IMG/VR virus record: IMGVR_UViG_2757320919_000001
Coordinates: 70,928-134,927 of that record
DNA: 64,000 nt
DNA from: a virus
Lineage: Duplodnaviria > Caudoviricetes
Strand: one strand, 5' to 3'
Each line of letters opens with the position of its first letter. Position 1 is the first letter of the stretch. Shown piece by piece: positions 10,093 to 38,287 of this stretch. A program made the translations under genes and the position numbers. Under the pieces are notes generated by a model. The model was not told the origin of the DNA. It made no database searches and saw only the letters and a list, made by a program, of their open reading frames with translations.

Positions 10093-10809
10093 TTATCCTA
10101 TTCTGTTATATAACTCTTCCATTGTTATATCTTCAATAACACCTGTTTTTTTATTTCTAACTGTAATTTTTGTGTCACCAGCTACACATTCATCAATAAA
10201 AATTAAATTAATACTAAGACCCCTAAAAGCATCTGGTGTAGTTGCACTAATATATGCTTTACATCCTATTTCATTAACAAATGACTCTTTATTATAAACT
10301 TTTACGGATGGCTTTAACCATATCGGTAGATCAGCATACATGTCCATTAATCTTTGTAAGTTCTCAGCAGCCATAGTAAATTTATTAGCACAAATACCAA
10401 CAATGGTATCAGGGCAAAAACATAATTTCCATAATATATATAATAAAGTTGTAACAGATTTACCACTTTGTCTTCCTGCTAATACAACATTGAATCTATT
10501 TTCATAATATTGTTGTATTAATTCTTTTTGATAATCTCTTAAGTCAGGATAAACTAAACCTTCATCAAGACTTCTTATTTTAACATAATTTTCCACAAAA
10601 TAGATAATATCTACACTACATTTTTGAATCTCTATTATATGTTCTTCTTTTAAAGGTAATTTAGTATTAATATATGAAAGTTGAGGATTATTACCATAGC
10701 TAACTTTTTGATTACTAATATCTAAAAAATATCCGTTTTCATCCTGTGGCAACAGTTTATTTAAATAGCTTATTCTATCATCTTTTAACTGCTGAATATC
10801 TTCAAACAT
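10093..10809 (-). CDS. gp17: terminase large subunit N-terminal half + N-intein fragment
   Basis: LRDYQ, AGRQSGKS Walker A, FRG..LIFIDE then CVAGDTKITV intein block A; own TATAAATA at 10835-10842. Confidence 0.9.
   Translation of the reverse strand: MFEDIQQLKDDRISYLNKLLPQDENGYFLDISNQKVSYGNNPQLSYINTKLPLKEEHIIEIQKCSVDIIYFVENYVKIRSLDEGLVYPDLRDYQKELIQQYYENRFNVVLAGRQSGKSVTTLLYILWKLCFCPDTIVGICANKFTMAAENLQRLMDMYADLPIWLKPSVKVYNKESFVNEIGCKAYISATTPDAFRGLSINLIFIDECVAGDTKITVRNKKTGVIEDITMEELYNRIG
10096..10188 (-). other. split intein N-fragment (31 aa)
   Basis: CVAGDTKITVRNKKTGVIEDITMEELYNRIG* directly after Walker B DE. Confidence 0.85.
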
Positions 10810-10845
10810 AAAATATAATCCTTATATTTTATGGTATTTATAAAG

Positions 10846-11322
10846 TTATCCAAATATATATTTTAATAAAGCTAACAAAGTAAATATAGGAATACATAAC
10901 CAAACAGCACCCATAAAGGTTTTTGCGTGGGTTTCAGCTAATTTTTCTAACTTTCTTTCTTCTTGATAATGTTTTTGTATAAGGCTAACATTATTCCAAT
11001 AACCATTTTCATTATAGTACTCAAGTCTGTTAATTATAAACCTAACTTTTCCTTTAGATAAATTTAATTTAATTTCTTTTTCAGGTTTGTCTATTGAATT
11101 AGCTCCATAATTTCTAAAATCCCAATAAACATCTTCTGATATCTTAAAAGAATATGATTTAAAATTAGTCAATTCGTCTTCTAATAATTTTCTATAGAAT
11201 TTATCTTCATAGTCTATTGAAATTAAATTCATCAACACTTGTAACTCTAAATTACTCAGGTCTTTTTTAGAATGAAAAAGTATAAAATCAGCTAAATCTT
11301 TTGATTTTATTTTACTCATCAT
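10846..11322 (-). CDS. hypothetical membrane-anchored protein, degenerate Panacea/DUF4065-like N-terminus
   Basis: DLADFIL..LSNLELQVLM pattern; C-terminal hydrophobic helix. Confidence 0.45.
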   Translation of the reverse strand: MMSKIKSKDLADFILFHSKKDLSNLELQVLMNLISIDYEDKFYRKLLEDELTNFKSYSFKISEDVYWDFRNYGANSIDKPEKEIKLNLSKGKVRFIINRLEYYNENGYWNNVSLIQKHYQEERKLEKLAETHAKTFMGAVWLCIPIFTLLALLKYIFG

Positions 11323-11978
11323 TATTCCTTTATAATACTTTTAAACAAAGTCTGCTTATGTAATTCTGGCAAAGATTCATAAACTTTATTAGCTAATATT
11401 CTTATTTCATGTAAAGCATGATTAGACGACCTTAACTCTAAGAAGTTTCTTAAACTTCTAGCATTTATAGTCCAGTATAAATTTGTTCTAAATGCTTCTG
11501 GTAAAGCATATTTTACAACATCATTACTCTTATTTTGTTTTACTAGTCTTAATAAATTATCCAAATTAGATAATATTTGTAAATTAGATTCTAAGTCTTC
11601 AGTCAAAACTACATATTTAGAAGCTCTATCAAAGTCTTGTTCATATTTGAATTCTTCTTCATTTTTTAAATGTTTTTTCAAAGTATATCTAGTACTTTCT
11701 ACGCTAAGACTTGCATGTCTGTGTCTAGCTAACTCTTGGAGACACGCTCTACTAATACCTTTTATAAAAAAATTGTAATATACATGTTCTATTGTACTAA
11801 GGTGCTTATGATGATTAACAATTCTATCTAATAATGCTTTATCTTGGTTACCTAAAACTAATCTACCATTTTCATAGACACTGTCTTTTTTGCATCCACT
11901 ATCCCAACAAGTCCTTATAGCGTCTATTGTTATTTCTAATGGTGTATGATGTAATAATTTTACTTCTATGTTTTTCAT
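11322..11978 (-). CDS. thyX: flavin-dependent thymidylate synthase
   Basis: H.STIEH, SRACLQELARHRHASLSVESTRY, NARSLRNFLELR. Confidence 0.95.
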   Translation of the reverse strand: MKNIEVKLLHHTPLEITIDAIRTCWDSGCKKDSVYENGRLVLGNQDKALLDRIVNHHKHLSTIEHVYYNFFIKGISRACLQELARHRHASLSVESTRYTLKKHLKNEEEFKYEQDFDRASKYVVLTEDLESNLQILSNLDNLLRLVKQNKSNDVVKYALPEAFRTNLYWTINARSLRNFLELRSSNHALHEIRILANKVYESLPELHKQTLFKSIIKE

Positions 11979-12187
11979 GATTATAATCCTTTCTTACCTT
12001 TAAAATGTAAAAAACATTCCAAATACAATTATTCCAATATTATAAAGTGATAAGTGTAATTATTTATATATGTTACTTTTTAAATTTATGTTATTGTATA
12101 ATAAAACTGCTTAAAATTATCTTAAACTAACTAAGCATAATTTAAGTAAAAATTATATATAATATGGAAATTACTTGAAAGGACATT

Positions 12188-13957
12188 ATGAATGTAACTG
12201 AAAAGTTAAAGTTTTTAAATGATTTAGGATACGAAGTTATATCAGAAAACTTGGGCAAACAACTACAGGTAAAATGTAAAAATGGTCATGTTATAACCAG
12301 ACAATTCTATGAATATATTCGTGGTAATACTGGCTGTGGCGAATGTGATTATCAGGCAAAATTAAACCTGATAAAATCATATGGTTTTGAAGTTATATCT
12401 AGTAATGTTGGTAATGACATGAAGTTAAAATGTGTTAATGGTCATATATTTTCAAGGGCATATAAAGTATTTGTTAAGGGCGCTACAACTTGTCCAGAAT
12501 GTAATACAAATAACATACTAGATCAATATAAACAATTAGGTGTAACATTAATCAACAAATCATCAAAACAACTTACTTTACAATGCAGCAAAGGTCACAC
12601 TTACACTTGTACTACAATAACAGCACAACACAAATGCCCCATTTGTATTAGAAATGAATATTCATCTTTTATGGAAGCACTTGGTTATGAAATTATATCA
12701 GAAAAATTAGGTAATGATCTTAGAGTAAAATGTAAAAATGGTCACATATTTAGTAGAACCTTTGATAATTTTAAGAATGGCCATAATACTTGTCCAGAAT
12801 GTGAAAAAATATCAAGAATACAATTTATTGAAAGTAATGGGTTTAAATTAATATCAGAAAATGTCGGTGCTAATATGGTTGTTAAATGCAAGAACGGACA
12901 TACTATACATAAGAAATACACAGCGTTTAAAGCACATCCAACATGTAGTATATGTCAAAGAAATGAGAGAATGGAATTATTAAAACAATATAATTTACAA
13001 CCTATTACTGATAATCTTGGTAATGAATTAATTGTTGAGTGTGAAAACGGGCATACATTTAAAAGATATTTCAACAATATCAAAAAAGGATCTACAAAAT
13101 GCCCTATCTGTTATCCATATATTAGTTCATTCGAATCAGAGATTGAAAACTTGCTAAGTGACTATGTTAAAAATGATAGGAATGTATTGAATGGTAGGGA
13201 GTTAGATTTTTATATACCATCAGTAAATTTAGCAATAGAGTGTAATGGAGACTACTGGCACTCAGAAAGTAATGGTAGAGGCAAAAATTATCATTTGGCA
13301 AAAACCAATATGTGTAATTTAAAAGGTATAAATTTATTGCATATATTTGAAAGTTCATGGGAAGCTAATAAGCATATTTGGATGAGTATAATCAACAATA
13401 AGTTGGGCAAATCAGAAAAAATAATGGCTAGAAAGTGTGTTATAAAGAATGTATCTAAGTATGATGAAAGATTATTTTTAGAAAATAATCATTTACAAGG
13501 ATTTGCTGGGAGTTCAATTTGTTATGGATTATATTTTAATAATGAGTTAGTTTGTTTAATGAGTTTTGGTAAACCAAGATTTACTAACAAATATGATTGG
13601 GAGTTGATCAGGCTATGTACAAAAATGGGATTAAACATTATAGGTGGTGCTAGTAAGTTACTTAGTTGTTTTCATAAAAATCACCCAGGCTCATTAATAA
13701 GTTATTCAGATAGGCTATATTCTGATGGTTCTGTTTATAAACAATTGGGATTCGAATTTAGCCACTATTCAGCACCTGGATATTTTTATGTTAAAGGTGG
13801 TAGTACTTATACTAGGTATCAATTTATGAAACATAAACTCAAAGACAAGCTAGAGAAATTTGATCCAAACTTGACTGAATCAGAGAATATGAGATTAAAT
13901 GGGTATCATAAAGTATGGGATTGCGGTCAAGGTGTTTGGGTAAAGGATATTAAATGA
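12188..13957 (+). CDS. Hef-like endonuclease, 6 zinc-ribbon repeats
   Basis: same architecture as 7692 paralog. Confidence 0.85.
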   Translation: MNVTEKLKFLNDLGYEVISENLGKQLQVKCKNGHVITRQFYEYIRGNTGCGECDYQAKLNLIKSYGFEVISSNVGNDMKLKCVNGHIFSRAYKVFVKGATTCPECNTNNILDQYKQLGVTLINKSSKQLTLQCSKGHTYTCTTITAQHKCPICIRNEYSSFMEALGYEIISEKLGNDLRVKCKNGHIFSRTFDNFKNGHNTCPECEKISRIQFIESNGFKLISENVGANMVVKCKNGHTIHKKYTAFKAHPTCSICQRNERMELLKQYNLQPITDNLGNELIVECENGHTFKRYFNNIKKGSTKCPICYPYISSFESEIENLLSDYVKNDRNVLNGRELDFYIPSVNLAIECNGDYWHSESNGRGKNYHLAKTNMCNLKGINLLHIFESSWEANKHIWMSIINNKLGKSEKIMARKCVIKNVSKYDERLFLENNHLQGFAGSSICYGLYFNNELVCLMSFGKPRFTNKYDWELIRLCTKMGLNIIGGASKLLSCFHKNHPGSLISYSDRLYSDGSVYKQLGFEFSHYSAPGYFYVKGGSTYTRYQFMKHKLKDKLEKFDPNLTESENMRLNGYHKVWDCGQGVWVKDIK

Positions 13958-15399
13958 ATGATAAAATAAAGTTTTTAAATGATTTAGGATATGAAGTAGT
14001 GTCAGATGATTTGTCCAAAAATCTTATAGTTAGATGTAAAAACGGACACGAGTTTAAAAGAAGGTTTTATGATTTTCAGCGTGGCACTATAATATGTATA
14101 CAATGTGATCATAACTCTAAATTATTTTATTTAAACTCATTAGGATATTCAGTAAAATCTAAACTAATAAACAATGACCTAGAAGTTATATGTAAAAATG
14201 GACATTCTTTTAAGCGTGCATGGAGTGAGTTTAAAAATGGAAATATAAAATGTGCAATGTGTTATGAACAGCACAAAATAGACTTTTTAAACAAACTTGG
14301 ATACACAATACTTGATATTAATAAAATTAAAGTAAAATGTAAACATGGACATGTTTTTGATAGAGTATGGAGTCATTTTAACAGTGGAGTGGTAGAGTGT
14401 AAACAATGCAAGAATAGTATAAAAATAGAATATATGAAGCTTGCAGAGCTTGAACCAATTAGTGAAAATATAGCTGATGGTTTAGAATTAAAATGTAAAA
14501 ATGGGCATGTTTTTAAAAGAACATTTAGTAATCTAAAGAAATGTAATGTATGCCCTATATGTCACTCTAATATTAGCTCATTTGAAAAAGAATTAAAAGA
14601 AATACTCCCAAAATGTATAGAAAATGATTACTCAGTACTAGGTGATAAAGAACTAGATTTTTATTTGCCAGAATATAACTTAGCAATAGAATGTAATGGT
14701 GATTACTGGCATTCTGAGCAAATGGGTAAAAATAATAGTTATCATTTGGATAAAACAGAAAAGTGTAGGGAGAAAGGAATTCAGCTTTTACAAATATTCG
14801 AGTCATCTTGGATAGAGAAAAAAGATATATGGAAGTCAATTATAAACAACAAATTAGGAAAATCAAAAAAGATAATGGCTAGAAAATGCATTTTAAAAGA
14901 AGTACCTAAGACAGAAGAGAAAGAGTTTTTAGACACAAATCATCTCCAAGGATTTACTGGATCAACTGTGTGTTATGGACTTTATTACCAAGATGAATTA
15001 GTTTGCTTAATGTCATTCGGAAAACCTAGATTTACAGGTAGGTATGACTGGGAGTTAATTAGATTATGTACTAAGAAGAACACAAATGTTATAGGTGGTG
15101 CTTCTAAATTACTTAGTTATTTCCATAAAAATAATAAAGGTAGTATTATTAGTTACTCAGATAGACTTTACTCTGATGGATCAATTTATAAACAATTAGG
15201 GTTCGAATTTAGTCATTATTCAGCACCTGGATATTTTTATTGTAAAAACAAAATAAAGTATCCAAGACAACAATTTATGAAACATAAACTCAAAGACAAG
15301 CTAGAGAAATTTGATCCAAACTTGACTGAATCAGAGAATATGAGATTAAATGGGTATCATAAAGTATGGGATTGTGGGCAAGGGGTATGGGTTAAATAG
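13954..15399 (+). CDS. Hef-like endonuclease, 4 zinc-ribbon repeats
   Basis: same architecture; ATGA overlap with previous copy. Confidence 0.85.
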   Translation: MNDKIKFLNDLGYEVVSDDLSKNLIVRCKNGHEFKRRFYDFQRGTIICIQCDHNSKLFYLNSLGYSVKSKLINNDLEVICKNGHSFKRAWSEFKNGNIKCAMCYEQHKIDFLNKLGYTILDINKIKVKCKHGHVFDRVWSHFNSGVVECKQCKNSIKIEYMKLAELEPISENIADGLELKCKNGHVFKRTFSNLKKCNVCPICHSNISSFEKELKEILPKCIENDYSVLGDKELDFYLPEYNLAIECNGDYWHSEQMGKNNSYHLDKTEKCREKGIQLLQIFESSWIEKKDIWKSIINNKLGKSKKIMARKCILKEVPKTEEKEFLDTNHLQGFTGSTVCYGLYYQDELVCLMSFGKPRFTGRYDWELIRLCTKKNTNVIGGASKLLSYFHKNNKGSIISYSDRLYSDGSIYKQLGFEFSHYSAPGYFYCKNKIKYPRQQFMKHKLKDKLEKFDPNLTESENMRLNGYHKVWDCGQGVWVK

Positions 15400-15414
15400 A
15401 ATGAAGGATAAAAA

Positions 15415-17238
15415 ATGACATTAGATGAGAAAATAGAATTTATTAAAAGTGTTGGGTTTGATATTATTGCACATAAGTCTAATAGTATAACATTACAATG
15501 TAATTATGGGCATGTTTTTAACAAGAAAGTAAGCAATATCATACCAAACACAAATATAATTTGTGATAAATGTGTTGTTATGTCTAAAGAAAAAACACTA
15601 AGGGAACTTGGATTTACACCTTTGTTAATAAACGGTGATAAATGCACTGTAAAATGTGATAAATGTAATCACATTTTTAATAGAACTTGGTATGCTTTTA
15701 ATACTCGTAAAAACACAAAGTGCCCTGAATGTGTTGAAGCAGAAAGATGGAATAACATAAATTTCCATTTAAATAACATGAAAGTGTCATACATTTCTGA
15801 TATACAAGGTAATTATACATTACAATGTAAAAATGGTCATATTTTTAAACAAGGTATAGCAGAAATCATTAAAGAAGTTGGATGTTATCAGTGTGAAGTA
15901 GAATACAGAAAAGAGTATATAAGGAATCTTAATTTTACTATTATTGAATATAATAGTAAAATATTCAATGTGAAATGCAATAAATGTAATCATGTTTTTA
16001 TTAGAGACTGGAATGGCTTTTATAATAGAAAATATACAACATGTCCTAATTGTATAGAAATAGAAAAGAAAAACCTAGCTAAAAAGCATGGATTTACTCT
16101 CACTGACACAAAATGTGATAATGACACAAGAGAGTTTATATGTGATAAATGTAATACAACATTTAAAAGAGGGTGGTCAAGTTTTACATCAAGAGGGAAT
16201 AAGGAATGCTATAATTGCAAGCAACTCAGTAGAATAAATTTAGCAAAGTCATATGGGTTGGATATCATAAATGAAAATATTACTTCAAAATATACTTTTA
16301 AATGTGATAAGGGACATGTTTTTGAAAGACCTTTCACTGTTGTAGAAAATAAAAATCAAACAAAATGCCCTATTTGTTACCCTAGAACCTCAAACTTTGA
16401 AATAGAGGTTAAAAATTTCTTAACAGAATTATGTATAAAATATATCCAAAATGACAGAAATATATTAGATGGATTAGAATTAGATTTTTATTTACCAGAT
16501 TATAATCTAGCAATTGAATGTAATGGAGATTACTGGCATTCGGATAGTGTTATTAGTGATAAAAAATACCATTTAAATAAAACTCTGAAGTGTAATTCAC
16601 AAGAAATACAATTATTACACATATTTGAAAGTAACTGGATAAAGAATAGAAACATTTGGGAATCTATTATTAAAAATAAATTAGGGTTGAGCTTTAAAAT
16701 ATATGCTAGAAAATGTGAAATTAAAGAAGTTAATAAAATAGAGGAAAAAGAATTTCTTAATAAAAACCATTTGCAAGGATTTACTGGTTCTGCTGTTTGT
16801 TATGGGCTATATTACCAAAATGAACTTGTTGAACTTATGTCATTTGGTAGATCAAGATTTAATAAAAACATATCATGGGAATTGATAAGGTTATGCACTA
16901 AAATAAATGTTAATGTAATAGGTGGTGCATCTAGGTTATTGAAGATATTTGAAAACAATTATCCAAACCAGACCTTATTATCTTATTCTAATAACTTATA
17001 TTCTAATGGTAAAATATACAATACATTAGGGTTTGAGTTTAGTCACACATCTAGTCCAGGTTATTTTTACTATAAGAATGGTATGACTTATGACAGACAA
17101 CAATTTATGAAGCATAAACTTAATAGTAAATTAGAAAAGTTTGATCCAAACTTGACTGAATCAGAAAATATGAAATTGAATGGATTTTATAGAGTGTGGG
17201 ATTGTGGTCAGGGTGTTTGGGTTAAAGGTAGCATTTGA
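15415..17238 (+). CDS. Hef-like endonuclease, 6 zinc-ribbon repeats (mixed CxxxH/CxxC types)
   Basis: same architecture, more diverged. Confidence 0.85.
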   Translation: MTLDEKIEFIKSVGFDIIAHKSNSITLQCNYGHVFNKKVSNIIPNTNIICDKCVVMSKEKTLRELGFTPLLINGDKCTVKCDKCNHIFNRTWYAFNTRKNTKCPECVEAERWNNINFHLNNMKVSYISDIQGNYTLQCKNGHIFKQGIAEIIKEVGCYQCEVEYRKEYIRNLNFTIIEYNSKIFNVKCNKCNHVFIRDWNGFYNRKYTTCPNCIEIEKKNLAKKHGFTLTDTKCDNDTREFICDKCNTTFKRGWSSFTSRGNKECYNCKQLSRINLAKSYGLDIINENITSKYTFKCDKGHVFERPFTVVENKNQTKCPICYPRTSNFEIEVKNFLTELCIKYIQNDRNILDGLELDFYLPDYNLAIECNGDYWHSDSVISDKKYHLNKTLKCNSQEIQLLHIFESNWIKNRNIWESIIKNKLGLSFKIYARKCEIKEVNKIEEKEFLNKNHLQGFTGSAVCYGLYYQNELVELMSFGRSRFNKNISWELIRLCTKINVNVIGGASRLLKIFENNYPNQTLLSYSNNLYSNGKIYNTLGFEFSHTSSPGYFYYKNGMTYDRQQFMKHKLNSKLEKFDPNLTESENMKLNGFYRVWDCGQGVWVKGSI

Positions 17239-17249
17239 GCTACCTTTAA
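17222..17249. terminator. bidirectional hairpin between convergent hef and sheath genes
   Basis: TTAAAGGTAGC/GCTACCTTTAA 11-bp stem. Confidence 0.6.
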
Positions 17250-17252
17250 TAT

Positions 17253-19163: not shown

Positions 19164-19330
19164 TTTCTTTCCTTTAAATAAATCTAAAAAACAGCATATT
19201 TAAAATTTTTAAGTCTATTAAAGGAAATAAAATTAAACCTATATATTACTTAGTATAACTATCATCTTCTGAAACAGTTAGCAATATATAGTTATTTTAA
19301 ATAGATACTGTTTTCTAGTATCTATTTATA
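19164..19330 (-). promoter_or_regulatory. late promoter plus ~155-nt structured 5' leader of sheath gene
   Basis: TATAAATA 19323-19330; nested inverted repeats; anti-SD segment at 19218-19227. Confidence 0.55.
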
Positions 19331-22920: not shown

Positions 22921-22936
22921 AAATAACCTTTTTAGA

Positions 22937-24906: not shown

Positions 24907-25989
24907 ATGGATAAATTAGAATATTTAAAATCATTAGGATATAACTTATTATCTGTTGAAGGTTCTTATGTAAAAGTCGAGTGTAAAAATAAACATATAT
25001 TTAGACGGGCTTTTGCATCATTTAAAATCAGAAATACACCATGTCCAGAATGTGAAATAGAAAATAGAAAACAATTTTTAGATAGCATAAATTATTCCCT
25101 TATTAGTATAAACGGTAGAAAAGTAGAAGTTAAATGCAAAACATGCAATACTATATTTTCAAAAGAATACTGCAACTTTAAGCAAGGTAAAATTACATGT
25201 AATTACTGTGAAACTAATAATAAAATAGAATATATACAATCACTAGGGTATAATGTTATTGATTTTGAGTCAAAAGGGTATATAAAGATACAATGTAAGC
25301 ATAATCATATTTTCAGTAGAGCATATAACTCACTAAAAAATGGATTTATATCTTGTCCATATTGTGAACATGAGCAAAGAGAAACATTTTTTAAACTCAT
25401 AAATTTAGAATTAATAACTTTTGATAAAGGTAAGATAACTGCTAAATGTAAGAAAAACCATATTTTTGATAGAACATATGGTTCATTCAAAAGAGGAAGT
25501 ACATTATGCCCTATATGTTATCCAAAAAGTAGCTCATTTGAAAAGGAAGTAAAGAATATTCTACCTAAAAATGTAATTGTAAATAACAGAACTGTATTAG
25601 ATGGTAAAGAACTTGATTTTTATCTGCCAGAATATAATCTAGCTATTGAGTGTAATGGAGACTATTGGCATTCTGAGCAAATGGGTAAAGACAAAAACTA
25701 TCATTTAGAAAAAAGTTTAAAGTGTATCAATAAAGGAATTTATTTAATTCATATATTTGAAAGTAAATGGTATTCTAACAAACAATTTTATATAAATTTA
25801 ATAAAAAATCACATTGATGGTATAATTAAAGACTATCCTAATAAAATTATATCTGATATCTCTTGTGAAAATCAACTAATGTTCCCAAAACTAGGTTACA
25901 AACTTGTTGATAATGTTGAACCTAATTTTGAAATATTTCAGAACACACTAAAAGTATACAATTGCGGATATAATATTTGGTTAAAATAG
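24907..25989 (+). CDS. short Hef-like endonuclease, 4 zinc ribbons, most of GNAT domain deleted
   Basis: zinc repeats + ELDFYLPEYNLAIECNGDYWH retained; C-terminus collapsed to ..YNCGYNIWLK. Confidence 0.8.
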   Translation: MDKLEYLKSLGYNLLSVEGSYVKVECKNKHIFRRAFASFKIRNTPCPECEIENRKQFLDSINYSLISINGRKVEVKCKTCNTIFSKEYCNFKQGKITCNYCETNNKIEYIQSLGYNVIDFESKGYIKIQCKHNHIFSRAYNSLKNGFISCPYCEHEQRETFFKLINLELITFDKGKITAKCKKNHIFDRTYGSFKRGSTLCPICYPKSSSFEKEVKNILPKNVIVNNRTVLDGKELDFYLPEYNLAIECNGDYWHSEQMGKDKNYHLEKSLKCINKGIYLIHIFESKWYSNKQFYINLIKNHIDGIIKDYPNKIISDISCENQLMFPKLGYKLVDNVEPNFEIFQNTLKVYNCGYNIWLK

Positions 25990-27409: not shown

Positions 27410-27449
27410 TATTTATATTATATAATATTTTTACTTAAACTTTCCTTAA
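27410..27449 (-). promoter_or_regulatory. stacked sigma70-type and late promoters for the nrdA fragment
   Basis: TTAAG-N6-TTAAG-N11-TATAAT (27417-27449) and TATAAATA (27410-27417). Confidence 0.65.
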
Positions 27450-29316: not shown

Positions 29317-30678
29317 TAATAAAGTGATCTCCAAAATATTTTAGGAATGATACAAAAATATAGCTTAAGAAAGGCTTAATTTAACCCAAACACCTTGTCC
29401 ACAGTCCCATATTTTACTGTATCCGTTTATATTCATATTCTCTGATTCAGTTAAGTTTGGATCAAATTTCTCTAATTTATCTTTGAGTTTATGCTTCATA
29501 AATTGTTGTCTTGAATACACTTGATTATTTTTGAAGTAGGAATATCCTGGTTCTGAATAATGACTAAATGTGAATCCTAACTGCTTGTATATTCCACCAT
29601 CAGAATATAATCTATCTGAGTAACTTATTAGGCTTCCTTTGTTATGTTTATGAAAATAATTAAGTAGTTTAGAAGCACCACCTATAACATTTAGTCCCAT
29701 TTTAGTACATAGTCTTATCAATTCCCAATCATACTTACCTGTGAATCTAGGTTTTCCAAAACTCATAAGACAAACTAGCTCATCTTGATAGTAGAGTCCA
29801 TAGCAAATAGAACTGCCAGTGAAGCCTTGGAGATGATTTTTGTTTAGAAACTCTTTCTCTTCTACTTTAGGTACTTCTTTAATAGCACATTTTCTAGCCA
29901 TTATTTTTTCTGATTTACCTAGTTTATTGTTTATAATTGATTTCCAAATATCTTTTTTCTCTGCCCAAGAATGCTCAAAGATGTGAAGCAACTGTATGTC
30001 TTTCTTTTTACACTTTTCTGTTTTATTTAAGTGATAATTTTTATCTTTAAACTTATCTGAGTGCCAATAAACACCATTACATTCAATAGCTAGTTTATGA
30101 CTTGGAATATAAAAGTCAAGCTCTTTATCTCCCAAAACAGAGTAATCTTTTTCTATATAGTTATCTAGTAAGTCAGATATTTCTTTTTCAAATGAGCTAA
30201 TAGAAGGGCTACATATTGGGCATATTTTAGCACCTTTTTTGAAGTTATGATAAGACCGTTTTATAATATGACCTTTTTTGCATATAACTTCTAAATCATC
30301 AGCTGTATTATCTGAAATTATTGAAAATCCAATATTGTCCAAATAGTTTGATTTATTTTGCTCACTACACATAACACATATTGAAATACCATTTTTAAAA
30401 TGCTCATATCTTCTTTTAAAAGTATGTCCATTTTTACACATTACTTCCAAATTGTTACCTAAATTACTCGATATAGGTGTATAACCAAGACTATTTAAAA
30501 ATGATATTTTTTCTTGCTTTTCACATTCTGGACAGTGTATAGTACCTCGCTGAAAATTGCCAAGACTTCGTTTGAATTTGTGCCCATTTTTGCATTGTAC
30601 TTCTAAATTACCTGCTAAATTAGATGATACAGGTGTATATCCAAGTGATTTAAGATATTCTATTTTATCCATTAATAA
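29260..30678. repeat. 63-bp perfect direct repeat at 5' ends of tandem hef genes (29260-29322, 30616-30678)
   Basis: identical TAAATTAGATGATACAGG...ATCCATTAATAA. Confidence 0.85.
29365..30672 (-). CDS. Hef-like endonuclease, 3 zinc-ribbon repeats
   Basis: same architecture; flanked by 20/21-bp direct repeat 29361-29381 / 30712-30732. Confidence 0.85.
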   Translation of the reverse strand: MDKIEYLKSLGYTPVSSNLAGNLEVQCKNGHKFKRSLGNFQRGTIHCPECEKQEKISFLNSLGYTPISSNLGNNLEVMCKNGHTFKRRYEHFKNGISICVMCSEQNKSNYLDNIGFSIISDNTADDLEVICKKGHIIKRSYHNFKKGAKICPICSPSISSFEKEISDLLDNYIEKDYSVLGDKELDFYIPSHKLAIECNGVYWHSDKFKDKNYHLNKTEKCKKKDIQLLHIFEHSWAEKKDIWKSIINNKLGKSEKIMARKCAIKEVPKVEEKEFLNKNHLQGFTGSSICYGLYYQDELVCLMSFGKPRFTGKYDWELIRLCTKMGLNVIGGASKLLNYFHKHNKGSLISYSDRLYSDGGIYKQLGFTFSHYSEPGYSYFKNNQVYSRQQFMKHKLKDKLEKFDPNLTESENMNINGYSKIWDCGQGVWVKLSLS

Positions 30679-30738
30679 TCCATTATAATTTTTGGGGAGT
30701 ATATAATAATGTAGCTTAAGAGAGGCTTAATTAATGTG

Positions 30739-30761
30739 ACTCGGACTTACAAAGTCCGAGT
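30739..30761 (-). terminator. hairpin after major capsid gene
   Basis: ACTCGGACTT/AAGTCCGAGT 10-bp stem. Confidence 0.7.
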
Positions 30762-30767
30762 TATCTA

Positions 30768-32165
30768 CTAAGAGATTATGTAGTTATTTAAATTAACAGC
30801 AAATGTTCTGATGAATGCTTCTGGGTGTAATGGAGTAGCAACAACATCATATCTGTTATTTAAAATCATAGCAGGTTGCCCACTTACTGGATCTGTTAAA
30901 TTTTGTTGTAATGTAATGTTATATGGTGCAAAGAAAATACCAGCATCAAAGTTTGATGCTCCTTTGTAAGCAACAGTACAATAATCAAATTCAGCAAAGT
31001 TATCAACAATTACATCGTAACGATTATCGAATTTGCCAACATTTGGTTTAATACCACTGTTAATAGCATCAATTTTACTTCCTGCTGGAGATAAAACAAA
31101 TGATCCAATTTCATCAAGAATTGTAGCAACTTTTGGAGAAACGATTAATTTATTACCACCACCTTTTCTAGTTTGGCGACCGATTTCTCTAGCTTCATTG
31201 CTAATTCTCATACTTAAACCTCTTGCTTTTTCAATAAACCATCTACCATCTGCACTATTAACATCGAAATCAGTACATACAGTAGCAACTTCATTTGCTT
31301 TTTCAATAATAGTTCTGTCAATTTCAAGAGCAACTTCTGCACTTAAAATGTCAGCTAGTTCTTTTTCAGCATTTATTCCGTGTTGTGCTTTTAAGTCTTG
31401 TAACATTTCAATAGTATAAGTACCTTTTACTTTTCTGGTTTTAGCTTCAGCTAACACTCTTTGAACACTGATACCCATTTCTTTCATGTCTTTTCCAAGT
31501 TTTTCACCTGCAGCAGTTGCATAAGGACCAGTATAATTTTTAAGAACTTTTAACCATAAAGCTTCGTTTGTATATACAGCTTCAATAGTTGCTTTTTTAG
31601 TAGCAAATGAAGCTGCTTTATCAATTTCATCACCAATAGCAACAGAACCAGTTGAGTTAGATTCTAAGCGAAGTAATACATTTACCACATCATCTGTACC
31701 TGCTTGTTTCTCACTATATACTATTTTACCTTTAACAGTTGTAGCTGTTTTAAATGAAACTTCAATAGGAGTTCCAGTATAATTAAAGTCATCTTTATTT
31801 CCAGATTCTGTTTTAAGTTTTAAAACAATTGCATTTTTTGTTGGACTAACACTATTATTACCATCACCTACATAGTGTGGAACCATTGCATACAAATAAG
31901 CAGTTGGAGTTTTAAGTGCTTGAACACCAGCTATTTCAGTACCAATTAGACTAGGTAATGCTCTACGAATTACTGGAACTAAGATCGGTGTAAATTGTGC
32001 AATATCACCAGTTACAGTGCTTTCCATAAGCATTTTTACTTCTTTACCTTGATTTTCAAGCACAGTTCTCATTATATTTTTCTCAGATTCATTGAGATTA
32101 GGATATAAGTTGCTTGTAATAAATTTTTCTTTTGTTGATTCATCTAACAAATATTTGTCAGCCAT
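30768..32165 (-). CDS. gp23: major capsid protein
   Basis: LENQ, RRALPSLI..IAGVQ, EAKTRK..YTIEMLQDLKAQHGINAEKEL, FFAPY. Confidence 0.97.
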   Translation of the reverse strand: MADKYLLDESTKEKFITSNLYPNLNESEKNIMRTVLENQGKEVKMLMESTVTGDIAQFTPILVPVIRRALPSLIGTEIAGVQALKTPTAYLYAMVPHYVGDGNNSVSPTKNAIVLKLKTESGNKDDFNYTGTPIEVSFKTATTVKGKIVYSEKQAGTDDVVNVLLRLESNSTGSVAIGDEIDKAASFATKKATIEAVYTNEALWLKVLKNYTGPYATAAGEKLGKDMKEMGISVQRVLAEAKTRKVKGTYTIEMLQDLKAQHGINAEKELADILSAEVALEIDRTIIEKANEVATVCTDFDVNSADGRWFIEKARGLSMRISNEAREIGRQTRKGGGNKLIVSPKVATILDEIGSFVLSPAGSKIDAINSGIKPNVGKFDNRYDVIVDNFAEFDYCTVAYKGASNFDAGIFFAPYNITLQQNLTDPVSGQPAMILNNRYDVVATPLHPEAFIRTFAVNLNNYIIS

Positions 32166-32195
32166 AGTATTTCTCCTTTGGTTAATATGTATTAT

Positions 32196-32977
32196 TTATA
32201 AAAAATTACCATAAGTGGTATTATTTTGTGACTCAGAAAGCTGTTGCTTTCCACCTGTACTTTTTCTACTAATATTTTTTGATTTTAATTCTAGTTTATT
32301 AGCAATAGATCTGAGGTTTGATTCATAAGAAATGGCACCAGTATATGCTACACTTTCAGCAAGTGTATCAAACATGTCTCTATTCCCAATGCTTACTGTA
32401 TTTCTTATATTGTTATATATATTATTTTTTTGAGCCTCTTCTAGTTTCATCTGAAGTTTTTTATTTTTTTCTTCTAACTTTTTAACGTTTTTTCTTTTTT
32501 AACACTTTCATTAATTCTTTTCAATGCATTTATAGGACCACCTACTTTATCAGCGGTTTTAGCACATGCATCAACTACTTCTTTGTTACTACTTTCAACT
32601 AGTATTTCAAGGTTCATTGATCCTTTTTTAACAAATTCATCAACTTTATCCTTAATAATATTTTCAACTAGCTTATTGTAATGTTTTTTTACTCTATTAA
32701 TGGCATTATGCATAACTTTTTGGTTATTTTTATTAACCTGTTGTTTATACATTTCAGCACTCTCTTTTAACATTTTAACTTGTTTTTCATAATGTTTATC
32801 AACTTCAATTGCGTGAATATCAGCAATTTTTAAAGCAGCTTCAACTTTATTATCAACAGCTGCTTCAAATAATTCTTTTATTTCACCAACAACTTCAGGT
32901 GTAAAAACATTTTTATCAAGTTTACTTAAAAGTTCTTCCATGATAATTCCTTTATAATTGTGAAAATAAATCGACAA
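32196..32977 (-). CDS. prohead core/scaffold protein (gp22-like), interrupted by a 1-nt frameshift at ~32488-32500
   Basis: position between gp21 and gp23; helical E/K-rich; ORFs 32474..32977 and 32196..32450 join with one extra A. Confidence 0.7.
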
Positions 32978-33581
32978 ACTGAGAAGTTATACTCTTGTTA
33001 TTTATATTACTTTCATCTGCCTCTACAAGTATACCATTTTTATCTTTAATATAATTTTTATCTTTTAATATACCATTATCAAAAGATTCATTTAGACCTT
33101 TAGTATGTGCATTTCTATCAGACGGATTTGGCACTATATCAAATGTAATTAATTCATATTCTGTAACTGTTCCATTCATTAGTTCGCCACAACCCCTGCT
33201 AGAAACACCTATTGATATACCTTCATCAATTAGGTTCTTTAGTTGATTTGCTTTTGGGTTATCAAGCAATTTTGCTTTCCCCATAACATAATCACCTTCA
33301 ATTCTAAGATCTACTATTTTTGCTACAGCTTCAAGTGGATCAACATATTGTCTATTTGGATGTTGATATTCCATTAAAGAACTTGTAGTAGGGGTAGTTA
33401 TATGATGCTGGTATGAATTAACAGCACTTTCCCAAATAGGTCTTGGATATACTCTACCATTTATATTTTGCTGATTTATAGTTGCAAATATACCTTGTAT
33501 ATAATAATTTTTTTCACCTCTAGACTCGTTTAGTTCTACTGAACCTTTTATTTTTACCGGTTCTTCTATAATTAGTTTCAT
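32952..33581 (-). CDS. gp21: prohead core protease
   Basis: MKLIIE, NINGRVYP, EYQHP, GVSSRGCG, DIVPNPS. Confidence 0.95.
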   Translation of the reverse strand: MKLIIEEPVKIKGSVELNESRGEKNYYIQGIFATINQQNINGRVYPRPIWESAVNSYQHHITTPTTSSLMEYQHPNRQYVDPLEAVAKIVDLRIEGDYVMGKAKLLDNPKANQLKNLIDEGISIGVSSRGCGELMNGTVTEYELITFDIVPNPSDRNAHTKGLNESFDNGILKDKNYIKDKNGILVEADESNINNKSITSQFVDLFSQL

Positions 33582-33745
33582 TTATACTCCTTTAATACTT
33601 TAATTAAAGCTTCATTTTTCTTAATAGTTTCAATGTGATTTACAACTTTTGGATGATTATTATATTCTTGTTGAAGCTTTTTTTGAATTACATTAGAAAG
33701 TCCATCCATGTCTTTTCTTTCAACATATTTTACATAATTATACAT
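33578..33745 (-). CDS. 55-aa head assembly protein (gp67/68 position; not in ORF track)
   Basis: MYNYVKYVERKDMDGLSNV...KEYK; AGGAG RBS; coupled to gp20 and gp21. Confidence 0.6.
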   Translation of the reverse strand: MYNYVKYVERKDMDGLSNVIQKKLQQEYNNHPKVVNHIETIKKNEALIKVLKEYK

Positions 33746-35455
33746 TTATTCTCCTTTTGATAATTTTGTTGCTTTTTTAATTTTTTGATTTATAATATTT
33801 TTAGGTATACCTAATTTGGTAGCTTTTTTAACTATATTTCTTTTATTATCAGATATATCATCTTTAATTTTTAAGTCTTTATTTTCTATATTATCTAGAG
33901 AGTTATCTTCAGATTCATCTTCAATATCATTGTTAAAATTATCTTCATCGTCTGTAATGTCTTCATCGTCTGTGATTTCATTACCAAATTCATCTTCACC
34001 TGGAGTTGTTTGACTACCTTCTTGGAGAATTTCCTCTCTCATTTGGTCTATTTCCTCATCAGTCATTTTTAAAACATTTTTTAGTAAATATGATCTACTA
34101 AATATATCACCTTCATATTCTTTAAATTCAGTATAAAGATCTAGTCTCTGTTTTAATATATCTAAGTTTTGTCTTTCTAGGAAATTAGATTCTTTTTCCC
34201 AACCTATAAAAATATATTTTGAATAGTTATCAAATTCATCTTCTGTAAGAATATTATTTGTTATGGCATATCGTTTCATAATTTCAATTAATAAAACATT
34301 AAATCTTTGTCTTAATCTATTAATAAAAGCAAAAAACTTAATCTCGGTTGATTCTATTGATGTTGAGCTAAAGTCAAATACAGTTTTATTTTCACCCATT
34401 AATCGTGATGTTGGAACTTTTAAAGCATTATATAGTTTATTTTTAAAATAATCTAAATCTCCAGTTTCACCTAAATTTCCAGTTTCATCTAAAACATCTA
34501 CTTGTGTTCCTTTTGTACCACCTCTATTTGGAAAATAATAATCCTCTACCATAGACTGGATTGATGCACCATTTGATATACTACCGGTTTCTGTATTATA
34601 ATATTTTTTATATTTAAATTTATTTTTAATATCTTCAACGGCTGCAATTGCTTTTTCGTACCCAAGATTACCGACATCAATATTAAATACTCTACGAGAC
34701 ACAGATCTTGAATATCTTAACGGTATCATAAGGTCTTCTAATGTTTGTAGTTGATTTACGATTTTTATAACACTATGCAAATGAGATAATATTAAATTAT
34801 CAGAGTATAATCCTGAATCAATTCTTATAATTTCTTCTGGGTCATATACTTCAGAAGTGTCATCTGTTACTCCATAATTATTGCTATTATTAAAATACTG
34901 CCATTTGTTTGTTGATTTGTTAAAATATAACCCTGATGGGTTCATTATAACTGCATCAAGTATATTATTGTTATCATCGTAAGATAAACCTATTATTAGT
35001 TGCCCATCTATATAGAATCTTCTACACAAAACATCTATGTTTTCATTTAACTGCAATATTTCACATGACATATCAAATAACGATTGGAATGCTTCTTTCA
35101 AATTATCAGATAATATATTATCTTTGAACCCTAAATAGCAACAATCAATATTATTAGGTACAAATGACATTTCATTCGTTATTTCATCAATAGCATCTGC
35201 AACTTCAGGATATGCTGCTATTCTTCTGTATTCTTTTATTAAGCTTGCTTGTTTTGATACATCACTAATTATATCCGTCTCAAAATTATTATATCTATAA
35301 TTCCCTTCATCAAAATAACCTAATACAATATCATCTCTTGTAAGGTTGGCTTCTTTATGTGGGTCATCTGATTTAATAGAACCTTCCTGATTTTCTATTT
35401 TTAGAAAGGTTTTTTTGACAGATTCAACTAGACCATTAAACATATTTGCCATCAA
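33746..35455 (-). CDS. gp20: portal vertex protein
   Basis: YR..AAYPEVADAIDEI, RRVFNIDVGNL, EDYYFPNRGGTKGT, LYNALKVPTSR. Confidence 0.97.
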   Translation of the reverse strand: MMANMFNGLVESVKKTFLKIENQEGSIKSDDPHKEANLTRDDIVLGYFDEGNYRYNNFETDIISDVSKQASLIKEYRRIAAYPEVADAIDEITNEMSFVPNNIDCCYLGFKDNILSDNLKEAFQSLFDMSCEILQLNENIDVLCRRFYIDGQLIIGLSYDDNNNILDAVIMNPSGLYFNKSTNKWQYFNNSNNYGVTDDTSEVYDPEEIIRIDSGLYSDNLILSHLHSVIKIVNQLQTLEDLMIPLRYSRSVSRRVFNIDVGNLGYEKAIAAVEDIKNKFKYKKYYNTETGSISNGASIQSMVEDYYFPNRGGTKGTQVDVLDETGNLGETGDLDYFKNKLYNALKVPTSRLMGENKTVFDFSSTSIESTEIKFFAFINRLRQRFNVLLIEIMKRYAITNNILTEDEFDNYSKYIFIGWEKESNFLERQNLDILKQRLDLYTEFKEYEGDIFSRSYLLKNVLKMTDEEIDQMREEILQEGSQTTPGEDEFGNEITDDEDITDDEDNFNNDIEDESEDNSLDNIENKDLKIKDDISDNKRNIVKKATKLGIPKNIINQKIKKATKLSKGE

Positions 35456-35462
35456 TTTCCTT

Positions 35463-35486
35463 TATAAATAATATCAAATATTTATA
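35463..35486. promoter_or_regulatory. overlapping divergent late promoters
   Basis: TATAAATA on + (35463-35470) and on - (35479-35486). Confidence 0.7.
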
Positions 35487-35496
35487 AAGGATACTC

Positions 35497-36198
35497 ATGA
35501 CTAATATACCAAAACAAAATAAATTCGCTTATACAGAAGATAAACCTAAATATATGGATATTAATGGTACAACTAACTATATTTTACCTGGATTTGAATA
35601 TCCATCAGATGTAGCAGTTAAATTTCCACAGTTTTTTGGTGGTAAAGATAATGTTTTTTACCCAGACTTACAAGTAACTTTAACACCTGATAGTTTAACT
35701 TTTGAAAATAGTAAAAAGTCACAAGCAATAACTTATACAGCTACCGATGGGTCATCAATTACATCAGCTGTTGTAACAATAGAACCAAGTGATTTAGCTA
35801 CATGGAATGAAGGTGATAAAACATTTACAGGAAATGAAGAAGGTTCAGGTAAAGCTATATTTGAACTTACAGATGATAAAGGTAGAACAGCTATGAAAGA
35901 ATTACCTTTAACTGTTACAAAAGCAACAGTAGTAACAACTTTAACTCTTTCACCTAATAATTTAACTTTTGCTAATGCAAGTGCTCCAATGCAAGAAGTA
36001 ACAGTTACAACTAATGCTTCAGATTTTACATTAGAATTTAATAATCAAAATATACAAGCTGTTAAATCAGGTAATAAAATTCAAGTAACTCCAAAAACAG
36101 GTAAAACTGGATCATTTACAATCACAGTTAAAGCACAAGCTAGTGGTGGAAATCAAGTATCAAAAACTCTTAATATAACTGTTAATACAGGTGGTTGA
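35497..36198 (+). CDS. Ig-like domain virion protein
   Basis: two Thr/Val-rich beta-sandwich repeats (VTLTPDSLTF / LTLSPNNLTF ...ITV). Confidence 0.65.
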   Translation: MTNIPKQNKFAYTEDKPKYMDINGTTNYILPGFEYPSDVAVKFPQFFGGKDNVFYPDLQVTLTPDSLTFENSKKSQAITYTATDGSSITSAVVTIEPSDLATWNEGDKTFTGNEEGSGKAIFELTDDKGRTAMKELPLTVTKATVVTTLTLSPNNLTFANASAPMQEVTVTTNASDFTLEFNNQNIQAVKSGNKIQVTPKTGKTGSFTITVKAQASGGNQVSKTLNITVNTGG

Positions 36199-36932
36199 TA
36201 ATGGCTACTAGACAAAGCCTCAAAGATTATATTTTTGGAATGTTAGGTTCCCCAGTTATTACTGTGGAACTTACTGATTTCCAAATAGATGAGAATATTA
36301 ATTTTACTATACAAAAGTTTTCTGAGTTTGCTATGTATGGTAAATTAAAAGGCACACTATTAATTGACCTACCTAAAGGTGTGAGAAAAATTAAATTAGA
36401 CCCTAAAATTTCTGAGGTTATAACATTACGAATATATCCAAGTGGCGGAGGTTTTTTAGGGTTAAGTATTCCAGGTGGTTTAGTAATAACACCAACTGAA
36501 ATGCAAGCAATGCTATTTGGTGGAACAGTACAAGGTAACTTCAGCATGCAAAATGTATATTCTGTATTAGCAAATATGTCTATACTTGATACATATTTTA
36601 CAATAATACCAAATTATGCTTTTAATCCATTTACAAATATGTTAGAGTTTTTTGAAGATATAACTTCTGAAAAAGTTTTATTAGAAGTTAGATATAAGTA
36701 TATACCAGAAGAAGAAGATGGGATATACGAGCAACCATGGGTTAAAGAATACGCTTTAAACTTATGTAAAAGAACTTGGGGATCAAATATAGGAAAATAT
36801 GATGCACCATTAATAGGTGGTATTAAAGCTAATTATGAAAGAATTATACAAGAAGCAAATACTGAATTAGAAAGATTAGAAACAGTATTACTAGAAAACT
36901 ATTGTGAACCACTTCCATTATTAAGAGGTTAA
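36195..36932 (+). CDS. gp13: neck protein
   Basis: LKDYI..LGSPVITVELTDFQI, WVKEYA..KRTWGSNIGKY..L.GG. Confidence 0.9.
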   Translation: MIMATRQSLKDYIFGMLGSPVITVELTDFQIDENINFTIQKFSEFAMYGKLKGTLLIDLPKGVRKIKLDPKISEVITLRIYPSGGGFLGLSIPGGLVITPTEMQAMLFGGTVQGNFSMQNVYSVLANMSILDTYFTIIPNYAFNPFTNMLEFFEDITSEKVLLEVRYKYIPEEEDGIYEQPWVKEYALNLCKRTWGSNIGKYDAPLIGGIKANYERIIQEANTELERLETVLLENYCEPLPLLRG

Positions 36933-36958
36933 TCCTCTTAATATGATAAAGGAGAAAC

Positions 36959-37258
36959 ATGTATGAAGTACTAACACCAAATGGATTTAGTGATTTTGAT
37001 GATATATCAAGAGAAAAAAAAGATGTATATAAAGTAATAACAGAAGATGATTTTATAAAAGTAACAAAAGGTCATAAATTTGAAACACCTAATGGTTTTA
37101 AACAATTAAAACATCTTAAAATTAATGATTTAATAAAATATAAAAATAAGTTTTCAAAAATTGTTTCAATAGATTATATTGGGGTAGAATATGTATATGA
37201 TTTAATTAATGTACATAAAAATAACGAGTATTATACAAATAATTTTGTTTCACACAAT
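36959..37258 (+). other. split intein C-fragment (100 aa)
   Basis: VLTPNGF, VTKGHKF (block B), VYDL (F), SHN (G), Cys+1. Confidence 0.88.
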
Positions 37259-38287
37259 TGTGCGTTTATAGATAAATGGTCAGAATTTAGTAACTCTGTA
37301 ATACCTACAATATCCGCATCTAAAAAATCACAAATAATAGCAGCTTCTACACCAGTGGGGTTAAATCATTGGTATAAAATGTGGTCAGATGCTGTTGAAG
37401 GCAAGAGCTCATATAAACCTTTTAAAGTTGAATGGTGGAAAGTACCAGGTAGAGATGAAAATTATAAAGAGCTTATGATAAAAACTCTCGAGGGAGGTAT
37501 TAGAACCTGGAACCAAGAGTATGCATGTGAATTTATAGGAAGTTCTGATACTCTTGTTGATATGACTGTTTTATCTAATATTAAATTTGGAAATACTTTA
37601 AGAGAACCAAATTTTGGTGAAACAATAAGAGTATATGAAGCCCCACAAGAGAATCACAAATATATGGTTCTAGCTGATGCTGCAAAAGGTGCGATAGATG
37701 GTTTTGTATTTCATGTGATAGATGTAACAAATATTCCTTTTAAACAAGTAGCGTCAGGAAAAATACCAGAATCTTATTTGATGGCACCACCTATTTTTTA
37801 TAATATTTTAAGAACATACAATGAGGCTATGTTTGTATGTGAAAATAATGAGGGTGCTGGTACAAGCGTGGTTGATTTACTATTCCAAATGTATGAATAT
37901 GAAAACATATACCAAGAGCCAGATAAAAAATGGTTAGGAGTCAGGACAACTAAAAGCAATAGAAGTAAAAATCTTAGTAACATGAAACTTTTTATTGAAA
38001 ATAACAAATTGATATTACAAGATGAACCAACTGTTAAAGAACTGCTGACATTTTGTAATGTTAATGGAAAATACCAAGCACAAAATTCAAAAGCCCATGA
38101 TGATTATGTTATGGCATTAAGTCTTTTGTTTGTACCTTTATTAGATTTAAATAATATAGTTGATTACGATGTATTTTTAAATAAAATAAACGGTGATTCT
38201 GAAACAACTGATGGTGATGTAAAATATTTACAAATGGGATTTTTTGATGATGGTACTTCATCATTTTATGGTATTTTTGATGATTAA
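36959..38287 (+). CDS. gp17: C-intein fragment + terminase large subunit C-terminal half
   Basis: VYDL..YYTNNFVSHN|CAFI; ASTPVGLNHWY, QEYACEF, ENN..G, HDDYVMAL. Confidence 0.92.
   Translation: MYEVLTPNGFSDFDDISREKKDVYKVITEDDFIKVTKGHKFETPNGFKQLKHLKINDLIKYKNKFSKIVSIDYIGVEYVYDLINVHKNNEYYTNNFVSHNCAFIDKWSEFSNSVIPTISASKKSQIIAASTPVGLNHWYKMWSDAVEGKSSYKPFKVEWWKVPGRDENYKELMIKTLEGGIRTWNQEYACEFIGSSDTLVDMTVLSNIKFGNTLREPNFGETIRVYEAPQENHKYMVLADAAKGAIDGFVFHVIDVTNIPFKQVASGKIPESYLMAPPIFYNILRTYNEAMFVCENNEGAGTSVVDLLFQMYEYENIYQEPDKKWLGVRTTKSNRSKNLSNMKLFIENNKLILQDEPTVKELLTFCNVNGKYQAQNSKAHDDYVMALSLLFVPLLDLNNIVDYDVFLNKINGDSETTDGDVKYLQMGFFDDGTSSFYGIFDD

Follow-up and report, generated by a model that had tools for sequence, protein, structure and literature searches.

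A large terminase gene in two unlinked halves, each carrying a piece of an atypically split intein, in Campylobacter phages of the genus Fletchervirus

The stretch of DNA analysed here (the window) comprises 64,000 nucleotides (nt), bases 70928-134927 of the 134,927-bp virus record IMGVR_UViG_2757320919_000001, which CheckV rates as 100% complete; the genome is that of a Fletchervirus, a Campylobacter group III myovirus. The gene in question is terL, which encodes the large terminase (TerL) and is present as two open reading frames (ORFs), each combining a part of TerL with a part of an intein. The N-terminal half (N-half) is the ORF at 10093-10809 on the minus strand, 238 amino acids (aa) long; it holds TerL residues 1-207, ending in LIFIDE, and then a 31-aa N-terminal intein piece (IntN, CVAGDT...NRIG) and a stop codon. 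The C-terminal half (C-half) is the 442-aa ORF at 36959-38287 on the plus strand and starts with a 100-aa C-terminal intein piece (IntC) ending in FVSHN, followed by CAFIDKW and the rest of TerL residues 208-549. The two ORFs are 26,150 nt apart on opposite strands, face each other with their 5' ends and have 26 other ORFs between them. Such an arrangement had been claimed in an initial annotation made from the letters alone, and both ORFs were found at the coordinates given there; the claimed lengths of 31 aa for IntN, 100 aa for IntC and about 549 aa for the product were read as 31, 100 and 549 aa (207 + 342 for the predicted spliced TerL). The parts of the two genes are the following.

10189..10809, minus strand: TerL N-extein, aa 1-207, with Walker A GRQSGKS and Walker B ending in LIFIDE; PF03237, E 3.8e-8; phrog_5989, E 8.7e-115
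10096..10188, minus strand: IntN, 31 aa from Cys1 (CVAGDT...); stop codon at 10093-10095
36959..37258, plus strand: IntC, 100 aa, with block B TKGH, block F YDL...YYTN and terminal SHN
37259..38287 including the stop codon (coding to 38284), plus strand: TerL C-extein, 342 aa, beginning with the +1 Cys (CAFIDKW); the remainder of the ATPase and the nuclease domain; phrog_2, E 8.5e-22

The joined halves make up a large terminase of the T4 type, as they give an ATPase with Walker A and Walker B motifs and a C-terminal nuclease. Residues 28-209 of the N-half align with residues 77-258 of T4 gp17 (PDB 3ezk) with an E-value of 7.7e-29, and residues 99-403 of the C-half align with gp17 residues 255-562 with an E-value of 2.1e-35; the Walker A, Walker B and nuclease Asp motifs of the halves align to those of gp17. 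The two alignments abut at the Walker B sequence IDE/CAFI with no loss and no overlap, and the LIFIDE-CAFI junction that had been placed at this motif of gp17 is thus seamless. Similarly, the Pfam profile PF03237 (Terminase_6N) is shared out between the two ORFs, the N-half matching its positions 2-106 and the C-half its positions 121-207.

The intein pieces together carry the full set of class-1 residues, namely Cys1, the block B motif T-x-x-H (TKGH), Asp81 of block F, the penultimate His99, Asn100 and the +1 Cys, and by these residues the window intein appears to belong to class 1. Conservation was assessed in an alignment of 43 IntC sequences, that of the window and those of 42 of the 80 IMG/VR loci described below, with near-duplicates excluded as well as locus L045, which has a stop within the stretch. 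N100 and C101 turned out to be invariant and H39 and D81 at least 90% conserved, at 34-50% identity between the window IntC and the other 42. An AlphaFold2 model of IntC built from that alignment has a mean predicted local distance difference test score (pLDDT) of 81.0 and a predicted TM-score (pTM) of 0.66, with pLDDT below 50 only in the extein tail (102-113). Foldseek gave 44 matches of the model in the PDB at E <= 0.001, and the listed entries are all inteins or other HINT domains, foremost gp41-1 (6qaz, query TM-score (TMq) 0.80) and the Ssp DnaB mini-intein (6frh, TMq 0.81); the atypically split inteins VidaL (6vgv, TMq 0.74) and Cat (6dsl, TMq 0.73, 32% identity) are matched as well. 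The model thus points to a HINT/intein fold for IntC, and the fold evidence concerns IntC alone, the first strands of the domain being supplied by IntN.

The position of the break is equally informative. Against the contiguous intein of phage 7757, which has 136 aa, IntN covers residues 1-31 and IntC begins to align at residue 42, which places the split point at residues 32-41, after block A. The 36-aa tail of the N-half matches CatN (PDB 6dsl_A) over 31 residues with an E-value of 0.0064, and the head of the C-half matches CatC (6dsl_B) over residues 3-102 with an E-value of 3e-10; PDB entry 6DSL bears the title 'Consensus engineered intein (Cat) with atypical split site'. Atypically split inteins were defined by a break after block A, an IntN of about 15-36 aa and an IntC of about 100-122 aa with blocks B, F and G. 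Judged by the break position and the similarity of both pieces, the window intein seems to be a member of this class (the GOS, AceL-TerL and Cat type).

An intact terminase elsewhere in the genome would have spoken against the whole arrangement, and the search for one covered the complete record. PF03237 matched the N-half and the C-half only, and each half used as a protein query against the whole genome found only itself. PF17289 (Terminase_6C) had no match in the genome and missed the known C-half too, which makes it uninformative on paralogs. Since there is no other terL in the genome by these searches, packaging would depend on trans-splicing. A profile of IntC run over the record found the terL IntC and the cis mini-intein of NrdA (E 1.8e-9) as the only IntC-like sequences, apart from a 20-residue match beside the NrdA intein (E 0.37) of no weight; IntN therefore has a single possible partner.

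The same two genes are found throughout related isolates. There are 35 GenBank phage records that match each half at 90-99% aa identity, among them CP8, CPX, CP81, CP30A, Los1 and the F-series; all those listed are Campylobacter phages, and at least 4 of the 35 are RefSeq copies of GenBank entries. The assignment to Fletchervirus, subfamily Eucampyvirinae, is taken from the taxonomy line of one record, F356. In eight compared genomes the halves lie on opposite strands with facing 5' ends, at the following distances obtained by coordinate subtraction.

CPX: halves 21,953 nt apart
CP8: halves 21,954 nt apart
CP81: halves 21,954 nt apart
CJLB-10: halves 22,953 nt apart
CJLB-7: halves 23,580 nt apart
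CP39: halves 23,839 nt apart
Los1: halves 24,265 nt apart
CP30A: halves 24,388 nt apart

Most F-series records have the C-half near 1.5 kb and, on the other strand, the N-half near 106-110 kb, which corresponds to about 24 kb when the record ends are joined. F356 (MT863719.1; loci L091 and L092) differs in that its halves share a strand and are separated by 37,112 nt. Its N-half module is reversed relative to the C-half as compared with the other listed records and adjoins vertex/capsid-like and neck genes, and the local order of thymidylate synthase, unknown gene, N-half, end protector, endonuclease and single-stranded DNA-binding protein is kept. This suggests a large rearrangement with a breakpoint in a cluster of endonuclease genes. 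The IntC of four Fletchervirus relatives differs from that of the window at positions 70, 74 and 95 only, and the IntN of F356, the one N-half compared, shows no change. In the F356 record both genes are named putative large terminase, and the C-half carries the note 'Intein C-terminal splicing region InterPro:IPR030934'.

We consider it highly probable that the TerL halves are joined by obligatory protein trans-splicing; docking, splicing, timing and the route of separation are the parts of this explanation that we infer. TerL(1-207)-IntN would be made from a minus-strand unit shared with a gp2-like DNA end protector, and IntC-TerL(208-549) from one on the plus strand that also encodes a neck/adaptor-like protein and the tail tube. 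IntN (31 aa) and IntC (100 aa) would then dock into one complete HINT domain, divided atypically after block A and not at the usual endonuclease loop. Class-1 chemistry would follow, in which the Cys1 thioester undergoes trans-thioesterification to the +1 Cys, Asn100 cyclises and an S-to-N shift completes the reaction. The predicted product has a peptide bond between Glu207 and Cys, which would restore the strand of the packaging ATPase that carries Walker B and the catalytic Glu (...IDE/CAF...).

Signals for the separate expression of the halves are present at both loci, and the claim that each half has its own ribosome-binding site holds.

10819..10823, minus strand: ribosome-binding site AAGGA upstream of the ATG of the N-half
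36949..36954, plus strand: ribosome-binding site AAGGAG upstream of the C-half start
10835..10842, minus strand: TATAAATA, T4 late-promoter-like, 25 nt upstream of the N-half ATG
35463..35470, plus strand: TATAAATA, the nearest same-strand copy to the C-half, heading the unit of 35497-36198, 36195-36932 and the C-half

The initial annotation had also assigned both halves to late-promoter units. This is plausible as far as TATAAATA stands upstream of both units, but it is weakly supported, as the window has 26 copies of the motif where shuffling predicts 32.9, which is no enrichment. It was set aside as a late-promoter signal, and only its positions before genes are suggestive.

RNA data were available as contigs of four RNA-seq runs from one study and one sample. 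These contigs hold 92-93% of the sampled words of 9300-12000, the N-half region, for which word shares are the only measure, and cover 30 of the 30 bins of 30000-41000, the C-half region. Contig depth in the latter region is 3x10^4 to 3x10^5 in the bins of the major capsid gene, 28-272 in those of the endonuclease gene and 260-970 in those of the C-half; it cannot rank genes and was used for presence only, not for amount, strand or timing. The depth varies by orders of magnitude within 30000-41000, as would be expected of RNA more than of DNA.

Several points weigh against trans-splicing as the explanation or against parts of it. Splicing and docking are predictions from the sequence. The match of IntN to CatN is modest by itself (E 0.0064 with a 36-aa query), and the count of TATAAATA gives no help. 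The RNA contigs speak for presence only, and DNA carry-over in the libraries is possible. The halves belong to different transcription units and may not be made in equal amounts.

It is conceivable, though improbable, that the intein pieces dock and go no further, so that the TerL fragments are held together non-covalently as a two-chain motor without splicing. Split-intein halves bind tightly before reacting, and NrdA of the same genome is in two unlinked pieces with no intein at the break, which means that the lineage tolerates two-chain enzymes. However, all of the splicing residues (Cys1, TKGH, Asp81, His99, Asn100 and the +1 Cys) are intact and conserved in the family. The break is in the Walker B strand, next to the catalytic Glu, and a HINT domain of 131 aa that stayed there would probably block the ATPase centre.

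The halves could in principle also be joined at the level of nucleic acid, either in the DNA of a subpopulation, through inversion or recombination, or through trans-splicing of RNA, with the intein-like ends as relics. Long inverted repeats of Hef-like homing endonuclease genes do bracket the region, and F356 has the N-half module in the other orientation. Such joining would nevertheless leave the stop codon and both intein pieces between the exteins, and in F356 the halves are still 37 kb apart. The RNA libraries give no sign of it either: one contig (36811-37326) is collinear with the genome across the C-half start, another (37244-37905) runs across the boundary of IntC and extein, and the only two joints reported, both in or between endonuclease repeats, do not include one at 36959. 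We hold this reading to be very unlikely. Least credible of all is the idea that one or both pieces are decaying remnants and that another enzyme packages the DNA. Some GenBank records do label one piece a hypothetical protein, yet the genome, rated complete, holds no other terminase-like gene, both ORFs are intact, with 90% identity or more among the 35 records from plaque-forming isolates, and the motifs of Walker A, Walker B and the nuclease Asp can be aligned with those of gp17.

A scan of IMG/VR with the IntC alignment shows how the halves are arranged in other phages. It yielded 443 pattern matches, of which 190 were confirmed as relatives and the best 80 loci were kept, a sample biased to sequences that resemble the window IntC. 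Each of the 80 loci was searched for a TerL N-extein, and five with less than 700 nt upstream (L051, L056, L059, L064 and L071) were uninformative. The initial annotation had stated that the halves of such inteins usually adjoin, and this agrees with the survey: an N-extein lies upstream on the same strand within 2 kb at 71 of the 75 informative loci. In 13 of these 71 the N-extein and IntC share one open frame, that is, the intein is contiguous, and in the other 58 there are stops between them, with distances of 186-1965 nt (median 1115). At four of the 75 loci, three Fletchervirus genomes (L011-L013) and L085, there was no N-extein within 10 kb on either side; the unlinked layout is rare among these relatives (4 of 75). 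L085 is a 34.9-kb fragment of an uncultured phage, rated 9% complete, with no PF03237 match on the whole contig. Its stretch 9995-11101 has an IntC, then CEFVGKSN and a C-terminal part resembling a terminase nuclease, with no N-half found on the contig. This makes L085 a second candidate for unlinked halves, with an insertion site that appears to be a different one.

Three relatives are particularly useful for comparison. Desulfovibrio phage 7757 has a contiguous 136-aa mini-intein at the insertion site of the window intein (IDE/C...HN/CAFI). Shigella phage JK32 (Krischvirus) has the split form at this site, in adjacent genes: its N-half ORF of 583 aa (L004 1745-3496) overlaps the C-half ORF by 20 nt, and its IntN continues in frame into a TnsA-like/endonuclease I-like nuclease domain, so that the nuclease is fused and not free-standing. 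The window is 54% identical to JK32 in IntN and 34% in IntC. In CP21 of the sister genus Firehammervirus the terL pieces are adjacent on one strand (L003 4532-8818) and contain three inteins. The first is a 145-aa cis intein in Walker A; the second is split into 36 + 104 aa at RGFS/C, 8 residues upstream of the Walker B site, with a gene for a T5orf172-type endonuclease between the pieces; the third is a contiguous 133-aa mini-intein at VVDE/C in Walker B. Identity of the window intein to the CP21 split intein is 47% in IntN and 39% in IntC, as compared to 28% and 33% for the CP21 Walker B mini-intein. The window intein thus appears nearer in sequence to the split intein of CP21 but allelic in position to its Walker B mini-intein. 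In the GenBank annotation of CP21 the first 353 codons of the 614-codon C-terminal ORF are unannotated.

Dassa et al. 2009 (PMC2677866) described a split intein of a gp17-like terminase from Lake Gatun that is 'fractured at an unusual point' and has a C part of 122 residues. The window intein is similar to it in the T4-type TerL host, the break after block A and the combination of a short IntN with a long IntC (100 aa here); unlike that case, the window does not have its halves in one locus: they lie on opposite strands, separated by 26 kb and 26 genes. There is also a likeness to the fractured genes of the same paper, in which an intein marks the break in a phage gene and the surroundings are rich in endonuclease genes, a layout seen in the relatives with the T5orf172 gene between the CP21 halves and the nuclease fused to the JK32 IntN. 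Fractured genes keep their two halves at a single locus, separated by a free-standing endonuclease gene. The window has neither feature at the break, and its terL is not a fractured gene in this sense.

Two further systems are close. In cyanobacterial DnaE, the genes dnaE-n and dnaE-c lie more than 700 kb apart (PMC2874743); there, too, an essential enzyme comes from two unlinked genes and is restored by obligatory trans-splicing, as would be the case in the window. DnaE differs in its cellular host, in its canonical split (long IntN, short IntC) and in the host protein. CP21 terL, named as a close system together with IBB_35 (Carvalho et al. 2012, PMC3322345), comes from the same phage subfamily, and its split intein is nearest to that of the window in IntC and close in IntN. 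It is distinguished by adjacent halves on one strand, the endonuclease gene between them and the site 8 residues upstream.

The novelty implied by the initial annotation is smaller than it seemed, as inteins of this class have been described before, DnaE provides a precedent for unlinked halves, the IntC region is noted in the F356 record and the layout is common to the 35 Fletchervirus records of GenBank. What is unusual here is the scattered layout only; there are precedents for the host protein and for trans-splicing between unlinked products as well, and there is no new mechanism. A word search found no paper reporting that terL of group III Campylobacter phages is split or trans-spliced, the main genome papers being outside its reach. 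AceL-TerL, attributed to Thiel et al. 2014, is reportedly an atypically split terminase intein of the window's class. AceL-TerL and Cat are metagenomic or engineered, whereas the window intein resides in cultured phages. AceL-TerL comes from a cold lake and needed directed evolution; the Campylobacter host is grown at 37-42 C. It is possible, if doubtful, that Fletchervirus is the first cultured and tractable phage genus in which packaging strictly depends on unlinked trans-splicing, with a warm-adapted intein whose 31-aa IntN is of peptide size. If so, the intein could be used in protein semisynthesis without the directed evolution that AceL-TerL required; the peptide-sized IntN of atypically split inteins is wanted for protein labelling.

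A whole genus of cultured biocontrol phages that depends on trans-splicing for packaging would be a notable point. An essential late function would then rely on post-translational ligation of the products of two transcription units, in phages open to culture and assay, and a limiting or timing role of trans-splicing in packaging is directly testable. Unlinking may let the phage gate packaging, with the N-half made together with the end protector and the C-half with neck and tail-tube genes. There is also a practical side to the finding. GenBank labels for the pieces vary between 'putative large terminase', 'terminase subunit', 'DNA packaging protein' and 'hypothetical protein', and terL is a standard marker for phage phylogeny and for prediction of the packaging type, both of which are misled if half a gene and an intein piece are taken as the protein.

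PHROG annotation of 45 window ORFs describes the neighbourhood of the two genes. The N-half belongs to a minus-strand run of ThyX, a 158-aa gene of unknown function, the N-half and the gp2-like DNA end protector. On the plus strand, the C-half comes third in a run of genes, after those for an Ig-like protein and a neck/adaptor-like protein (PHROG head-tail adaptor Ad2) and before those for a 73-aa protein and the tail tube; the portal, protease, scaffold-like and major capsid genes are inverted and lie just upstream of this run, and the sheath gene is 18 kb off. Genes for Hef-like homing endonucleases (phrog_559; zinc-ribbon repeats and a nuclease-like core) account for 8 of the 45 ORFs. The neighbouring features are listed below.

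9353..10090, minus strand: DNA end protector (gp2-like), beginning 2 nt past the N-half stop; phrog_429, E 2.7e-48
10846..11322, minus strand: 158-aa gene of unknown function directly upstream of the N-half; phrog_12393, no Pfam match
7692..9317, minus strand: Hef-like endonuclease, phrog_559, E 4.6e-214; its inverted repeats with the 12188-17238 copies bracket the N-half module
12188..17238, plus strand: three tandem Hef-like endonucleases (12188-13957, 13954-15399 and 15415-17238) between the N-half module and the tail sheath
39267..40715, minus strand: Hef-like endonuclease closing the C-half unit; inverted repeat partner of the 13276-15248 copies
24907-25989, 27418-29334 and 29365-30672: remaining Hef-like endonucleases, phrog_559

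The 158-aa gene occupies the position of the small terminase gene in T4 and may, by its position, be a small terminase.

The Hef-like copies form direct and inverted repeats of 150-849 nt with 71-85% identity, which bracket both terL modules. The copy at 7692-9317 takes part in the inverted repeats I1 (849 nt, 82%) and I3 (753 nt, 73%), and the copy at 39267-40715 in I5 (669 nt, 77%) and I6 (522 nt, 82%). No endonuclease gene is found at the break itself, where the gp2-like gene comes next after IntN and the neck/adaptor-like gene just before IntC. Compared with the order 15-16-17-18-19-20 of T4 and JK32, which in JK32 comes after a neck gene, the window has the neck/adaptor-like gene, 17C, a small gene and then 19, with 18 and 17N elsewhere and 20-23 inverted. 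The terL halves were probably once adjacent, as they are in related phages. Their separation was most likely brought about by recombination among the Hef-like gene copies, because repeats of these genes bracket both modules and the F356 variant exists. A single inversion as the sole cause was rejected, since several rearrangements are needed to account for the differences from the T4/JK32 gene order.

Other genes of this genome are broken as well. NrdA, the large subunit of ribonucleotide reductase, is in two unlinked pieces on the same strand, about 67.5 kb apart.

Window 26010-27392, minus strand: NrdA C piece, PF02867 positions 220-523
Locus L008 1462-2850 (about 28037-29425 of the window's own genome), minus strand: NrdA N piece, a 462-aa ORF, PF02867 positions 1-221

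The break has no intein: the N piece stops shortly past SNLCCEI, and in the C piece 13 residues precede EIALCNL. A contiguous mini-intein of 153 aa (CVTKET...ISHN/T) lies within the C piece, at 26388-26846. NrdA looks like an intein-less gene in pieces, and nrdA of Aeromonas phage Aeh1 is reportedly such a gene. Directly upstream of the N piece, a 181-aa ORF (L008 2822-3367, minus strand, in the same genome) resembles, by eye, the C-terminal part of an NrdB-like protein, and the small subunit may also be in pieces.

Finally, the ORFs 32196-32450 and 32474-32977 on the minus strand, between the protease and the major capsid gene, match phrog_12134 positions 165-248 and 1-154, respectively, and this head gene is broken or frameshifted in the record. 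The RNA contigs contain single-T insertions at 32478, 32487 and 32505, which may be Ion Torrent homopolymer errors or may be relevant to the reading frame.

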